Source: a virus | Taxonomy: Duplodnaviria; Heunggongvirae; Uroviricota; Caudoviricetes | Strand: one strand, 5' to 3' | Virus record (IMG/VR): IMGVR_UViG_2734482588_000007 | DNA length: 4,508 bases | Part shown: piece after piece, positions 1 through 4,508 of the stretch | Numbering within the stretch: position 1 is the stretch's first letter | Layout of the letters: every line of letters begins with the position of its first letter | Notes under the pieces: generated by a model | Database searches by the model: none | What the model was told of the DNA's origin: nothing | What the model saw: only the letters and a program-made list of their open reading frames with translations | Program-made: the position numbers and the translations under genes

Positions 1-61
1 GAACCGTTCTGACAGCTTCGGCTTTGAACTCTTTAGAGTAACGTTGGGTTTTTCTGCTCAT
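1..61 (-). CDS. IS3-family transposase OrfA, N-terminal 20 codons only (gene continues beyond the left window edge)
   Basis: Reverse complement of 1-61 reads ATG AGC AGA AAA ACC CAA CGT TAC TCT AAA GAG TTC AAA GCC GAA GCT GTC AGA ACG GTT = MSRKTQRYSKEFKAEAVRTV. The Y-S-x-E-F-K-x-E-A-V motif is the typical N-terminus of IS3-family OrfA (HTH) proteins; from memory it resembles IS600-type OrfA. A strong SD (minus-strand AGAAGGAG, plus 69-76) sits about 8 nt upstream of the ATG (plus 59-61). Partial, so absent from the ORF track. Confidence 0.6.
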   Translation of the reverse strand, partial: MSRKTQRYSKEFKAEAVRTV

Positions 62-125
62 TATTAGCTCCTTCTGATGCCATTCTATTTCAGGAAGGAG
101 TGTCCGTTAAACTCAGGCTACCTCA
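1..125 (-). mobile_element. Partial IS3-family insertion sequence (left end: terminal repeat, orfA leader and orfA start); boundary approximate
   Basis: About 64 nt lie between the orfA ATG and a candidate terminus. The minus strand read from position 125 begins TGAGGTAGCCTGAGTTTAACGGACAC, which has the TGA-start, CTGA-TTT-containing style of IS3-family terminal inverted repeats. An alternative end is TGAGTTTAACGG from position 115. The other IS end is outside the window, so the inverted repeat and target duplication cannot be confirmed. Confidence 0.45.
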
Positions 126-802
126 GGTTATTCGCTTCTGGGCATGGGCGGATCAACAAATGATAGACGGTAATGCAGATTGTAACGCTCGCGGCGTTAC
201 AAAAAGTGCAATAGATCGCATCACTTTTATGTCTGGTTTTGCTGATGCGTTAATTCAGGTTGGATGGCTGGTCGAAAATGACGGAGGGCTTTCTCTACCT
301 AACTTTGAACGTCATAACGGAAAAAGCTCTAAAAAAAACGGGCGGTTACAAACGAGCGAGTAACAAAAATACGCGAACTGAAACGAAAAGGTAACGCTGC
401 CAGCGTTACACAAACGGATCAAAAAGCGTTACCAGAGGAAGAGGAAGAGGAAGATCTAAATACTGATCTCCCCCTCGCCAAAAACGAGCGTCTAAAAAAT
501 TCGAGCCGGAGGCTATTGAGCTGCCCGATTGGTTGCCGGAAACACTCTGGCATGAGTGGGTCCGGTTCAGACAGGCATTGCGAAAACCGATTCGAACGGA
601 GCAGGGCGCTAACGGGGCGATACGGGAACTGGAAAAATTCCGTCAGCAGGGTTTTACACCTGAGCAGGTGATTCGACACAGCATCGCCAATGAATACCAG
701 GGCCTGTTCGCGCCGAAAGGTGTTCGGCCTGAGACGTTGCTCCGACAGGTTAACACCGTCTCGTTGCCGGACAGTGCGATCCCGCCAGGCTTCAGGGGGT
801 AA
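126..802 (+). pseudogene. Phage replication initiator (replisome organiser) with DnaT-like C-terminal domain; 5'-truncated by the IS and interrupted by two -1 frameshifts
   Basis: Protein-like coding runs in frame 1 (126-339, VIRFWAWADQQMIDGNADCNARGV...HNGKSSKK), then frame 3 (333-~497, RAVTNERVTKIRELKRKG...EEEEEEDLNTDLPLAKNERLK), then frame 2 (~497-802, FEPEAIELPDWLPETLWHEW...). The C-terminus VNTVSLPDSAIPPGFRG* closely matches the E. coli DnaT C-terminus as I recall it (NTVSEPDSQIPPGFRG). Frame switches coincide with A8 (331-338) and A6 (494-499). The gene sits directly upstream of a DnaC-like gene, as in the host dnaT-dnaC arrangement. No valid start: the ORF-track GTG at 100 lies inside the IS end and abuts the SD-like sequence. 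Confidence 0.6.
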
Positions 803-808
803 CGGACC

Positions 809-1555
809 ATGAAAAATATTGCGACAGGCGGCGTTCTGGAACGCATCCGCCGACTGACCCCGCCACATGTAACCGCCCCATTCAGAACGGTAGCGGAGTG
901 GCGCGAGTGGCAACTTGCTGAAGGCCAGAAACGTAGCGAGGAGATCAACCGCCTGAATCGCCAGTTGCGGGTGGAAAAAATTCTGAATCGCTCAGGCATC
1001 CAGCCGTTGCACCGTAAATGCTCGTTTGCGAATTACCAGGTGCAGAACGACGGCCAGCGATACGCGTTAAGCCAGGCGAAATCCATCGCCGATGAACTGA
1101 TGACCGGGTGTACAAATTTTGCGTTCAGCGGAAAACCTGGTACCGGGAAGAATCACTTAGCGGCAGCTATCGGGAATCGCCTGCTGAAAGACGGTCAGAC
1201 AGTGATTGTGGTTACCGTGGCTGATGTTATGAGCGCCCTGCACGCCAGCTATGACGACGGGCAGTCAGGCGAAAAATTTTTGCGGGAGCTGTGCGAAGTG
1301 GATCTGCTGGTTCTTGATGAAATTGGCATTCAGCGCGAGACGAAAAACGAGCAGGTGGTGCTGCACCAGATTGTTGATCGCCGGACAGCGTCGATGCGCA
1401 GCGTGGGGATGCTGACAAACCTGAACTATGAGGTGATGAAAACATTGCTCGGCGAGCGGGTGATGGATCGCATGGTCATGAACGGCGGGCGCTGGGTGAA
1501 TTTTAACTGGGAGAGCTGGCGTCCGAATGTTAGCCATTCGAGGGTTGTTAAGTAG
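809..1555 (+). CDS. dnaC: DnaC-like replicative helicase loader (AAA+ ATPase), prophage paralog
   Basis: 248-aa ORF with SD AGGGGG (794-799) 9 nt upstream of ATG 809. Walker A GKPGTGKNHLAAAIG and Walker B DLLVLDEIG are present. Roughly 50% identical by eye across the full length to E. coli DnaC as recalled (MKN...P.H..P.F.T...NRSGI.PLH..CSF.NY.V...GQ..ALS.A...FSGKPGTGKNHLAAAI...TVAD.MSA...DLLV.DEIG.Q.E.K.E.V...QIVDRR....R..GMLTN.N...M..LLGERVMDRM.....WV.FNW.S.R), with the same length. Confidence 0.9.
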   Translation: MKNIATGGVLERIRRLTPPHVTAPFRTVAEWREWQLAEGQKRSEEINRLNRQLRVEKILNRSGIQPLHRKCSFANYQVQNDGQRYALSQAKSIADELMTGCTNFAFSGKPGTGKNHLAAAIGNRLLKDGQTVIVVTVADVMSALHASYDDGQSGEKFLRELCEVDLLVLDEIGIQRETKNEQVVLHQIVDRRTASMRSVGMLTNLNYEVMKTLLGERVMDRMVMNGGRWVNFNWESWRPNVSHSRVVK

Positions 1556-1569
1556 TTTCAGGAGGATTT

Positions 1570-1992
1570 ATGGCGAAACCTTTTACTCCCGAACAGCGGG
1601 AAGAACTGAAGACGCGAATTGTGGAACTCGTGCATCAGGACGGTCGGGTCACGATTCGGCAGTTGTCAGATGAAACAGGTATCAGTCGTGCGTCTGTCGG
1701 TCGCTTATGCATAGAACTGGTCGCAAGTGGTGATGTATATAATTCTGGCTACGGCTTATTCCCGTCTGAACAGGCTCGCAAGGACTGGCAAAGCGCCCGC
1801 AAAAAACTCTCGAGAGTAAAGGTGAGGAAACCGGTTGTTGTTGATCCGGACCTTATCTGGTCATTACCTGACGGAGAAATACGCCGCTACGACAGGCGCC
1901 TGAATATAATCTGTCGCGAGTGCCGGAAGAGCGAAGCTATGCAGCGTGTACTGGCTTTCTATCAGGGTAATTTTCAGGAGGCGATACTGTGA
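1570..1992 (+). CDS. Hypothetical small HTH protein, tentatively Ren-like
   Basis: 140-aa ORF with SD GGAGG (1561-1565) 4 nt before ATG 1570. Predicted helix-turn-helix segment RVTIRQLSDETGISRASVGRLCIELVASGDV. The C-terminal motif ECRKSEAMQRVLAFYQG resembles the lambda Ren C-terminus as I recall it (ECRQSAAMKRVLAVYG), and the gene sits immediately after the P/DnaC-like gene as ren does in lambda. The family assignment is from memory and unverified. Confidence 0.6.
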   Translation: MAKPFTPEQREELKTRIVELVHQDGRVTIRQLSDETGISRASVGRLCIELVASGDVYNSGYGLFPSEQARKDWQSARKKLSRVKVRKPVVVDPDLIWSLPDGEIRRYDRRLNIICRECRKSEAMQRVLAFYQGNFQEAIL

Positions 1993-2406: not shown

Positions 2407-2511
2407 TTAAATTTAGCACTGTTAAAAATTTAATCCTTAACCGGAGGGATTTCTGCACCCTCAAATCATCAGGAGACCACCCGAAAGGGCGGGGAGCAGT
2501 CACACATCTGT

Positions 2512-2540
2512 TTCCGATAGCCCCGTTCTAATGCTACACT
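2512..2540 (+). promoter_or_regulatory. Candidate sigma70 promoter with extended -10 upstream of the queH-like gene
   Basis: -35-like TTCCGA (2512-2517), 14-nt spacer, then TG-n-TACACT (2532-2540), i.e. an extended -10 pattern. The predicted start site would lie only a few nt before ATG 2554, and there is no recognisable SD upstream of that ATG. Weak match, sequence-only. Confidence 0.2.
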
Positions 2541-2553
2541 CTTTGATATTTTT

Positions 2554-3240
2554 ATGACCCCAATAAACATATTTATGACAGTTGCTGATTTCAAACGGCC
2601 CAAATTGGAGCTCCCAAACGGGGCAAACAAACTACTACTGCACTCTTGCTGTGCTCCATGTTCCGGTGAGGTGATGGAGGCGCTTCAGGCCTCGGGAATC
2701 GACTACACCATCTTTTTCTACAACCCGAACATTCATCCTCAGAAAGAGTATTTAATTCGTAAGGATGAGAATATTCGCTTTGCTGAACAACACGGCGTGC
2801 CGTTTATTGATGCTGATTACGACACAGACAACTGGTTTGAACGAGCCAAAGGAATGGAATGGGAGCCCGAACGAGGGATCCGTTGCACCATGTGTTTTGA
2901 CATGCGTTTTGAGCGGACAGCGCTGTACGCCGCTGAAAATGGTTTCAGTGTGATCAGCAGTTCACTGGGCATTTCACGCTGGAAAAATATGCAGCAGGTT
3001 AACGACTGTGGGCGGCGAGCCGTCGCGCATTATCCGGGCATGGTGTACTGGGATTATAACTGGCGCAAGCAGGGCGGCTCGTCCCGTATGATTGAAATCA
3101 GCAAGCGCGAAAAATTCTATCAGCAGGAATATTGTGGCTGTGTGTATTCTCTGCGCGATACCAATCTACACCGCAAATCTCAGGGACGCCCTCTTATCAA
3201 AATTGGTCAACTCCACTACGGTAAAGAAGAGAAGGAGTGA
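2554..3240 (+). CDS. queH: QueH-like epoxyqueuosine reductase (DUF208 family)
   Basis: 228-aa ORF carrying the N-terminal motif [12 protein letters not shown] (nt ~2634-2667) and a downstream YCGC motif (nt ~3129-3140). Size and cysteine pattern match the QueH/DUF208 family as I know it. Start could alternatively be ATG 2575; neither start has a clear SD. Confidence 0.8.
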
Positions 3241-3266
3241 TTTTATGGGGCACCTTTCTGATTGAT

Positions 3267-3582
3267 NNNNNNNNNNNNNNNNNNNNNNNNNNNNNNNNNN
3301 NNNNNNNNNNNNNNNNNNNNNNNNNNNNNNNNNNNNNNNNNNNNNNNNNNNNNNNNNNNNNNNNNNNNNNNNNNNNNNNNNNNNNNNNNNNNNNNNNNNN
3401 NNNNNNNNNNNNNNNNNNNNNNNNNNNNNNNNNNNNNNNNNNNNNNNNNNNNNNNNNNNNNNNNNNNNNNNNNNNNNNNNNNNNNNNNNNNNNNNNNNNN
3501 NNNNNNNNNNNNNNNNNNNNNNNNNNNNNNNNNNNNNNNNNNNNNNNNNNNNNNNNNNNNNNNNNNNNNNNNNNNNNNNNNN
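3267..3582. other. Run of 316 N (assembly gap or masked sequence); content unknown
   Basis: Uninterrupted n characters from 3267 to 3582. Every ORF-track entry spanning this region (poly-X translations) is an artefact. Confidence 0.99.
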
Positions 3583-3606
3583 CATCCTCAACGCACCCGC
3601 ACTTAA

Positions 3607-3649
3607 CCCGCCCATCGCTGTGATCTCTCAGCGTTTCGGCGGGTTTTTT
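3607..3649 (+). terminator. Rho-independent terminator candidate (plus-strand orientation)
   Basis: Two-part GC-rich stem: CCCGCC (3607-3612) pairs with GGCGGG (3638-3643), and CGCTG (3616-3620) pairs with CAGCG (3629-3633), around an 8-nt loop. It is followed by TTTTTT (3644-3649) and further T-rich sequence. No T-run follows on the minus strand. Confidence 0.5.
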
Positions 3650-3669
3650 GTTGTTTATTTCCGGTGAAT

Positions 3670-4104: not shown

Positions 4105-4458
4105 ATGGCACATATACAACTGGTCAAACAAACCTCTTCCGGATTACTTCTCCCGGCGACGCCGGAGAGTTGCGATTTTCTGCATCAAATCAAAATAGGT
4201 GAGTGGATACACGCAGACTTTAAGCGTGTGTGTAACTACGCATTCCACAAGCGTTTTTTCAAACTCCTGCAACTGGGTTTCGATTACTGGACTCCGGTCG
4301 GTGGGGCGATCACGCCTCGCGAACGAAAACTGGTGTCCGGTTTCGTTGATTACCTGTGTGAATCAGTAGGCCGGGAACATACGCCAGCTCTGAGCGAAGC
4401 CGCAGAGCAATTGAGGTGTACTGGCAATAGCGGACACTACCATTTGTTCTTTTTTTAA
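4105..4458 (+). CDS. Hypothetical phage-associated protein (117 aa from ATG 4105); C-terminus possibly truncated at a T7 run
   Basis: ATG 4105 is preceded by SD GGAGA (4094-4098) with 6 nt spacing. The ORF-track TTG start at 4063 is less likely. Protein-like composition (MAHIQLVKQTSSGLLLPATPESCDFLHQIKIGEWIHADFKRV...). The ORF ends FFF* inside TTTTTTT (4450-4456). No family confidently recognised. Confidence 0.45.
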   Translation: MAHIQLVKQTSSGLLLPATPESCDFLHQIKIGEWIHADFKRVCNYAFHKRFFKLLQLGFDYWTPVGGAITPRERKLVSGFVDYLCESVGREHTPALSEAAEQLRCTGNSGHYHLFFF

Positions 4459-4508
4459 GCAGCCATCTGATGATATTTTTCCCTGAAGGCTGCCGGGGAG
4501 ATATTCCC

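Follow-up and report, generated by a model that had tools for sequence, protein, structure and literature searches.

The window analyzed here, a stretch of 4,508 nucleotides (nt) from a virus record of the IMG/VR database (IMGVR_UViG_2734482588_000007; Caudoviricetes), carries, between the replication genes and the nin-like genes of a degraded lambdoid prophage, an intact gene, queH, for a predicted epoxyqueuosine reductase. The reductase QueG is cobalamin-dependent, and QueH is its iron-dependent, cobalamin-independent replacement (PMC13443448, PMC5615194, PMC6461909). The gene recurs in prophages of numerous Escherichia coli strains, all of which also have queG. The reading that we favor, and consider probable, is that queH is a promoter-bearing accessory gene that would give the lysogen a cobalamin-independent route from epoxyqueuosine (oQ) to queuosine (Q).

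Identity, prevalence and origin of queH

The open reading frame (ORF) runs uninterrupted on the plus strand from 2554 to 3240 (228 amino acids) and contains a CCAPC-type N-terminal motif together with YCGC, the QueH hallmarks that a preliminary description of this DNA, made from the letters alone, had pointed out. Its match to the Pfam family PF02677 (QueH, formerly DUF208) is nearly full-length, covering profile positions 1-174 of 175, and lies far above the gathering score of 23.5 (E=1.9e-65, 220.6 bits). A phmmer search against the PDB aligns the ORF with the QueH of Thermotoga maritima (7LC5) across the whole domain (E=5e-22). The family was sampled by aligning the query with 39 diverse QueH proteins of 35-86% identity (40 sequences in all), drawn from an exhaustive representative search that yielded 4,755 members at E<=1e-3. 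Seven cysteines are invariant in this alignment (C25, C26, C29, C104, C107, C187 and C189), as are N52, E58, R62, E99, R103, R111, K137, Q184, G188 and S192; the query retains every one of these residues and, accordingly, the family motifs CCxPC near the N-terminus, RCxxC in the middle of the protein and YCGC near the C-terminus. When T. maritima is added, the conservation of the C29 and R111 columns falls to at least 90%: Asp13 of that protein is the odd one out at the CCAP(C/D) site, where the cysteine of the query is the family consensus (at least 90%).

The AlphaFold2 model of the protein is of high predicted quality (predicted local distance difference test score 95.5, predicted template-modeling score 0.91), and Foldseek superimposes it on 7LC5 with E=3.7e-15, a target-normalized template-modeling (TM) score of 0.92 and a root-mean-square deviation of 1.2 A over 179 columns. 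By fold, TtuA-type tRNA thiolases rank next, far behind, with TM scores of ~0.5 or less. The conserved cysteines line up with the family columns; titles of PDB entries name the mutants C9S and D13N, equivalent to C25 and C29 of the query, and a queuosine complex has also been deposited. By profile match, residues and fold, the ORF is a bona fide member of the QueH family. NCBIfam has no model that matched it and was uninformative. The prophage protein and T. maritima QueH (PDB 7LC5, 7LC7 and 9DEU) share the family, the extent of the domain, the fold, the invariant residues and the predicted reaction. They differ in that the prophage protein is only ~30-33% identical to the T. maritima enzyme, has CCAPC in place of CCAPD and ~20 extra C-terminal residues, is encoded by a prophage rather than a chromosomal gene, and is known here from its sequence and a model.

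The preliminary description placed the start of the gene at 2554, but translation almost certainly begins at the ATG at 2575, 21 nt downstream, because a stop codon interrupts the frame between the two candidate ATGs in a related prophage copy (locus L005), the seven residues between these candidates differ freely among copies while the remainder of the protein is nearly invariant, the first residue of the chromosomal QueH homologs corresponds to M8 (MTTADFKRP...), and the annotation by the NCBI pipeline PGAP begins at the equivalent of 2575 as well.

With the queH ORF alone as the query, the gene was detected in 995 of 5,426 complete E. coli genomes (~18%), nearly always as a single chromosomal copy with 95-99% identity, and 985 of the 995 matches are near full length. 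The gene for QueG is present in all 5,426 genomes, and therefore every queH carrier has both reductases. The general statement that enterobacteria normally use QueG thus holds for E. coli but not for the order as a whole, given that QueH is chromosomally encoded in many Enterobacterales.

The gene is subject to strong constraint. Pairwise Nei-Gojobori comparison of five prophage copies gives a ratio of nonsynonymous to synonymous substitution rates (dN/dS) of 0.03-0.05, with dS up to 0.44, and in the window queH is intact although insertion of IS600 elements has destroyed the neighboring phage genes. Because the ends of IS600 cut the O-like replication gene and the NinB-like gene at the two edges of the window, this prophage is a degraded, non-viable remnant, as is typical of Shigella and some E. 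coli. The low dN/dS, the prevalence of intact copies (in the E. coli genomes as well as among the viral loci described below) and the survival of the gene in a remnant riddled with insertion sequences (IS) argue that the prophage-borne enzyme has been kept functional by purifying selection.

Among the 80 best relatives, taken as one genome per species, a prophage context is seen in two only, Escherichia albertii and Shigella flexneri; in the other 78 species, queH is found without lambdoid markers nearby, among ordinary chromosomal neighbors that differ by genus. Amino acid identity to these chromosomal proteins is 87-92% for Enterobacter, 91% for Scandinavium and Kluyvera, and 78-86% for Erwinia, Serratia, Pectobacterium, Dickeya, Proteus, Providencia, Rahnella and Pantoea. 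The neighbor-joining tree of QueH tracks the family structure of the Enterobacterales: the Escherichia prophage clade nests in the Enterobacteriaceae, as the sister group to the copies of Enterobacter hormaechei, Scandinavium and Kluyvera, and the QueH proteins of other phage lineages branch apart from this clade, among Enterobacter copies. Since the prophage clade lies inside the chromosomal copies of the Enterobacteriaceae, prophage queH seems to have been captured from an Enterobacteriaceae chromosome, and judging by the tree, such captures into phages probably occurred more than once. Across the range of 78-92% identity, the chromosomal proteins have the same start as the window copy and the same unit boundaries, and those of the closest genera share its extended -10 element; the difference is one of location, ordinary genus-specific neighborhoods for the chromosomal genes as opposed to prophage cargo for the window copy.

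The boundaries of the transferred segment are sharp. Homology between prophages with differing neighbors begins at 2504, homology to the chromosomal copy of Enterobacter hormaechei begins at 2511, and the right boundary is at 3244/3247. As delimited by these alignments, the mobile unit is ~740 bp long and consists of ~65 nt of upstream region and the queH ORF. Identical boundaries are found in 20 plasmid records, including 16 from Klebsiella pneumoniae and one Salmonella IncFII plasmid, and 15 of the 20 are predicted to be conjugative. In the two plasmids that were inspected, an IncFIB/IncFII plasmid of K. pneumoniae (L237 6001-6740) and the Salmonella IncFII plasmid (L238 6001-6744), the unit resides in IS-flanked cargo. 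On the Salmonella plasmid, queH is located close to the iron-dicitrate transport genes fecC/fecE.

Carriers and genomic setting

The carrier is a Rac/Qin-type lambdoid prophage in which queH follows the replication genes and precedes the nin-like genes, a position already recognized in the preliminary description. A locus of E. coli FDAARGOS_944 (L001), 99.5-99.9% identical to the window and free of the gap present there, belongs to a full prophage of 40 kb that extends from int/xis through the tail genes and is inserted beside ybhA. The queH slot is identical in O157:H7, in sequence type 131 (ST131) and in a wild-bird isolate, after the replication genes and the DUF977 gene; downstream of queH, these three strains have hokD, a Dcm and NgoMIV restriction-modification pair, or a DUF1971 gene. 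The isolated Escherichia phage HannyBb carries queH in the same slot (L002 6050-6736) and is the only deposited phage genome with this gene; most of the other tblastn matches labeled 'Bacteriophage sp.' are short unannotated metagenome fragments. A second apparent phage carrier, 'Acinetobacter phage MD-2021a' (L006, CAKLQH020000001.1, 328 kb), was rejected: the record carries soxR, tadA, cynX and type VI secretion system genes and is a fragment of a bacterial chromosome mislabeled in the phage collection. Its queH is chromosomal, 78% identical and annotated as 'putative prophage protein'.

IMG/VR contains ~216 viral contigs with a QueH relative, and 139 of the 149 that were retrieved are at least 95% identical to the window copy. 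In the 59 distinct loci of this lineage, the ORF of 221 amino acids is intact in 56. The upstream neighbor is the DUF977 gene (39/59), the gene for a hypothetical protein of 118 amino acids (10/59) or a small ORF of the HannyBb type (7/59), and the downstream neighbor is hokD (40/59), dcm with NgoMIV (9/59) or the DUF1971 gene (3/59). The phage slot is constant, and the gene is not part of the core chromosome. Because the neighbors vary while queH stays the same, it has no fixed partner across these loci. Taken together with the profile match, the residues and the fold, this context in many genomes bears out the proposal that queH is accessory cargo at the lambdoid replication/nin junction.

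Other temperate phage lineages carry QueH copies with 87-89% and with 83% identity. In the lineage with 87-89% identity (L179 7947-10524; also L171, L180, L187, L196, L199 and L203; hereafter the L179 lineage), queH and a gene for an AIPR/AbiU abortive-infection protein of 573 amino acids are encoded on the same strand, antisense to the replication and RusA genes. In the O157:H7 prophage (L003 7872-9882; Z1768), genes for a Dcm-type cytosine methyltransferase and a NgoMIV-family endonuclease lie directly downstream of queH. Part of the homology to the sok region survives there, which suggests that the restriction-modification pair replaced hok in some prophages. Overall, the slot is a variable site that also holds hok/sok, restriction-modification and abortive-infection genes. 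The queH prophages further contain clusters of genes for tRNA-Ile, tRNA-Arg, tRNA-Thr and tRNA-Gly close to the Q/lysis region (L001 23430-23740, L004 12451-12703, L005 11275-11428), none of which encodes a tRNA of the queuosine family (Asp, Asn, His, Tyr).

The annotation of the gene depends on the resource. The RefSeq/PGAP label 'epoxyqueuosine reductase QueH' is already attached to it in ~1,000 E. coli genomes. Phage resources miss the function: HannyBb queH is annotated as hypothetical, and PHROGs assigns the window ORF to phrog 3217, 'unknown function'. Since the profile of this phrog begins only at residue 41, past the CCAPC motif, the ORF has by implication been called too short in many phage genomes.

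The features of the window are listed in Table 1. The reverse strand of positions 1-60 encodes MSRKTQRYSKEFKAEAVRTV, the start of IS600 OrfA, which reads leftward from about position 60. The segment 1..125 is 100% identical to two IS copies in a Shigella flexneri locus (L008), and at the other end, megablast matches of 4411..4508 are annotated as 'IS3-like element IS600 family transposase' in 2,964 genomes. These limits coincide with those of the alignment to L001, from which the window diverges to the left of position 125 and in which homology stops at 4411. The O-like gene is single and intact in L001 (789 nt). The alignment with the window copy contains two gaps, and the window copy is frameshifted; its two ORFs match phrog_2509 at positions 34-102 and 193-277 of 277, with further matches to phrog_6451 and phrog_678. 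The protein of 118 amino acids shows a similarity to Zn_Ribbon_TF, a TFIIB-like zinc ribbon, that is below the Pfam cutoff (2e-4). The gene for this protein has a strong Shine-Dalgarno sequence, and only a minority of prophages have it just upstream of queH. No riboswitch or other Rfam family at E<=0.1 and no tRNA gene was detected in the window.

Table 1. Features of the 4,508-nt window.
Feature	Coordinates	Strand	Remarks
IS600 (IS3-family) element end	1..125	-	truncates the O-like replication gene
O-like replication-initiation gene remnant	126..802	+	5'-truncated, split into ORFs 100-363 and 533-802
ydaV, DnaC-like helicase loader	809..1555	+	NCBIfam PRK12377 8e-154; Pfam IstB_IS21; phrog_50 DnaC-like
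DUF977 winged-helix protein	1570..1992	+	Pfam DUF977 1.1e-33; phrog_142 (PHROG label: Ren-like exclusion protein)
Hypothetical protein, 118 amino acids	2050..2406	+	phrog_1621 5e-56 ('unknown function'); PGAP coding sequence L001 19651-20007
queH upstream region	2504..2574	+	AT-rich, 35% GC; putative extended -10; no Shine-Dalgarno sequence
queH coding sequence	2575..3240	+	221 amino acids; predicted cobalamin-independent Fe-S epoxyqueuosine reductase
N run	3267..3582	+	equivalent of the hok/sok type I toxin-antitoxin locus
Small nin-region ORF, 95 amino acids	3779..4066	+	phrog_340 6e-20; PGAP hypothetical protein L001 21474-21761
DUF1367/NinB-like gene	4105..4411	+	Pfam DUF1367 1.5e-46, profile positions 1-102 of 198; phrog_319 NinB/Orf; 3' end cut off by IS600
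Second IS600 copy, end	4411..4508		matches L008 10014-10110

The run of N downstream of queH had been suggested to conceal partners of a 7-deazaguanine-related function. This suggestion is refuted by the gap-free locus: window positions 3266 and 3583 correspond to L001 20867 and 21278, and the 410-nt interval between these holds only the sok antisense RNA (Rfam RF01794, 117 bits, 20899-21074) and the hokD coding sequence assigned by PGAP (21069-21224). No Tgt/DpdA-like, QueC, QueD, QueE or FolE gene is annotated anywhere in the 40-kb prophage of L001, and none of the loci L003-L005 has an annotated transglycosylase of the DpdA/Tgt family. The gap comprises 316 N compared with 410 nt in L001, a difference that means either masking with altered length or a shorter hok/sok locus in this genome. 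Just to the right of the gap, at 3600-3660, CCCGCC...GGCGGG followed by TTTTTTG resembles the 3' stem and terminator of hok mRNA, which the terminator scan did not call because the loop is too long.

Proposed role of the prophage-encoded reductase

QueH converts oQ into Q at position 34 of tRNA-Asp, tRNA-Asn, tRNA-His and tRNA-Tyr. E. coli does not synthesize cobalamin (vitamin B12) de novo and has to scavenge it, and oQ accumulates when none is supplied. Because E. coli always has QueG and cannot make its cofactor, the prophage QueH would provide a B12-independent second route beside QueG. The proposed sequence of events is that the ~740-bp unit was captured from an Enterobacteriaceae chromosome into the replication/nin-Q slot of E. 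coli, Shigella and E. albertii prophages, that the gene would be transcribed in the lysogen from its own extended -10 promoter, and that lysogens would complete Q-tRNA whatever the corrinoid supply, which would amount to a lysogenic conversion of the tRNA modification status. The enzymatic activity, the expression in the lysogen and the benefit under B12 limitation are the steps that we infer.

The candidate promoter is a putative extended -10 element, TGCTACACT (TG-C-TACACT), at 2532-2540, which is kept in prophage and chromosomal copies of queH; in its conserved form, it is (A/G)ATGCTACACT and reads as TGnTAnnnT. This pattern is present in 27 of the 80 species' loci, compared with 10.1 expected from shuffled sequences, and in 16 of these 27 it is located at one fixed distance, ~40 nt before the ATG. 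In the L179 lineage, queH is antisense to the early operon and therefore cannot depend on transcription of that operon. Judging by the conserved element, a promoter of its own is plausible for queH. For the 'own weak promoter' of the preliminary description, this element and the negative generic sigma-70 scan described next point in different directions.

Several points weigh against the favored reading. A generic scan for -35/-10 sequences finds no plus-strand sigma-70 promoter beside queH, and there is no intrinsic terminator after the gene, either in the window or in the ungapped L001. Inspection by eye reveals no purine-rich Shine-Dalgarno sequence upstream of either ATG, as had been noticed before. 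Because queH is co-oriented with the early-right operon in the E. coli lineage, it might be expressed there mainly in lytic growth. The roles of the conserved cysteines as metal ligands would be read from the invariant columns and from the PDB titles of the C9S and D13N mutants. Finally, to our knowledge, no physiological difference between oQ-tRNA and Q-tRNA has been established, and the benefit is hypothetical.

That queH might act in lytic growth leads to the alternative that the same enzyme serves the phage, such that read-through from the early-right region after induction tunes Q-tRNA for the translation of late genes, with queH as a lytic auxiliary gene. We consider this unlikely. The arrangement in the E. 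coli, Shigella and HannyBb lineage, with queH directly downstream of the co-oriented replication genes and no terminator detected between them, speaks for this alternative, and the tRNA genes near Q in lambdoid carriers make the tuning of translation a theme of these phages. However, none of these tRNAs belongs to the Q family, the promoter-like element is common to chromosomal and plasmid copies of queH, the orientation in the L179 lineage is the opposite one, and the gene is intact, under strong purifying selection, in a remnant prophage that is unable to replicate. Moreover, tRNA turnover within a 1-hour lytic cycle would give a last-step modification little chance to matter.

Alternatively, queH could be a neutral hitch-hiker, functional in appearance, that spread with successful prophages, without benefit to either phage or host, an option to which we attach little weight. 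It would account for the presence of queG in every host, the absence of a known phenotype and the restriction of queH to 18% of E. coli. It sits poorly with dN/dS of 0.03-0.05 at dS as high as 0.44, with ORFs that are intact in 56 of the 59 viral loci and near full length in 985 of the 995 genomes, with the persistence of the gene in an IS-degraded remnant, and with independent moves of the gene, which has reached IncF plasmids and variable sites in chromosomes as well as several lineages of phages.

Recruitment of the QueH fold to another task, be it a 7-deazaguanine base in DNA, a free nucleoside, or defense or counter-defense, deserves hardly any credence: the slot is a hotspot of defense genes and morons (hokD in 40/59 loci, Dcm with NgoMIV in 9/59, AIPR/AbiU in the L179 lineage), and QueC-family proteins are known to have been co-opted by defense systems (PMC13639016), but all catalytic columns are kept, the identity to chromosomal proteins whose tree follows Enterobacterales taxonomy is 78-92%, there is no fixed partner across the 59 loci, the 40-kb prophage has neither Tgt/DpdA nor preQ0-synthesis genes and only hok/sok in place of the gap, and the idea of a defense component was rejected in the absence of any match of QueH to a PADLOC family at E<=0.01.

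To return to the cobalamin-independent route for the lysogen, a broader version would hold that QueH on prophages and IncF plasmids is a selected trait that uncouples the completion of Q-tRNA from the corrinoid supply where B12 is scarce, for instance in the gut under competition or inflammation, inside cells or on aerobic surfaces. We regard this version as possible but tentative. If it is true, lysogens would carry Q rather than oQ, with measurable effects on NAU/NAC decoding, on stress and metal phenotypes, or on virulence; it would be the first lysogenic conversion through a host tRNA-modification step; and tRNA-Q phenotypes would differ between K-12 and the ~18% of natural E. coli that carry the gene.

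Related systems and implications

The coexistence of two reductases has parallels among bacteria. Staphylococcus aureus, with its QueG and QueH, likewise has a pair of redundant reductases that rely on different cofactors. A 2017 study by Zallot is said to have found both enzymes in Acinetobacter baylyi as well. The situation described here differs from such dual chromosomal systems in that the second enzyme is encoded by a prophage or, in Klebsiella and Salmonella, by an IncF plasmid. The two S. aureus enzymes differ in expression, and the authors of that work read this as an adjustment to the availability of the cofactors (PMC13443448). The QueG of E. coli (yjeS) occurs in the same cells as the prophage QueH and carries out the last reaction of queuosine synthesis (PMC5372724), which is also the reaction predicted for QueH; in contrast to QueH, it belongs to an unrelated family, requires cobalamin in addition to an Fe-S cluster (PMC13443448), and is a core protein of the species (5,426/5,426 genomes), whereas queH is accessory (995/5,426).

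Among genes carried by phages, the closest analogs are the 7-deazaguanine DNA-modification clusters (FolE-QueD-QueE-QueC with DpdA), which likewise bring genes of the queuosine/archaeosine pathway into phage genomes. According to Hutinet et al. 2019 (PMC6884629), these clusters modify phage DNA, and no homologs of QueA, QueG or QueH were found in viral genomes. The window prophage differs in type, with a lone Q-specific last-step enzyme and neither a transglycosylase nor preQ0 genes. A distant QueH with 41% identity occurs in a different arrangement on a 77.8-kb contig classed as viral (L168 7932-13417; IMGVR_UViG_3300045988_139995), at the head of a same-strand cluster with DUF4406, QueA, QueF, QueC, QueD, QueE and FolE. 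By its predicted gene content, this cluster covers the whole tRNA-queuosine pathway, the Q-specific QueA and QueH included, on a contig of uncertain viral status; in PHROGs, its flanks show only a sigma-factor match and a weak tape-measure match.

With the morons of lambdoid phages (PMC3594210), the queH unit shares the single non-essential gene, the sharp breakpoints between modules, a promoter-like element and a plausible benefit to the lysogen. It differs from them in that no intrinsic terminator was detected, the base composition shows no contrast between queH and its flanks, and expression in the lysogen is only predicted. Because a terminator of its own was not detected, the unit is moron-like cargo rather than a textbook moron. 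A link between DUF208 and RuvABC/YebC that was suggested in 2012 (PMC3403352) predates the QueH assignment and has no bearing on this locus.

Neither the enzyme family nor its reaction nor the moron concept is new; it is the carrier that is under-described, and in the searchable literature we found no paper on the carriage of QueH by prophages, phages or plasmids. Queuosine influences how Asp, Asn, His and Tyr codons are decoded, and links to biofilm, virulence, and metal and oxidative stress phenotypes have been described (PMC10570037, PMC9508795). If the proposed role is correct, temperate phages and IncF plasmids would carry a host tRNA-modification enzyme as cargo, in contrast to the 2019 survey of viral genomes that reported no Q-specific enzymes (PMC6884629), and roughly a fifth of E. 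coli strains would possess a cobalamin-independent reductase beside their own QueG. If QueH works in these cells, a queG knockout would be without effect in queH-carrying backgrounds, and conclusions on queuosine biology drawn from K-12 would not apply to many strains of clinical and veterinary origin, among them ST131, O157:H7, avian pathogenic E. coli (APEC) O1 and 042.

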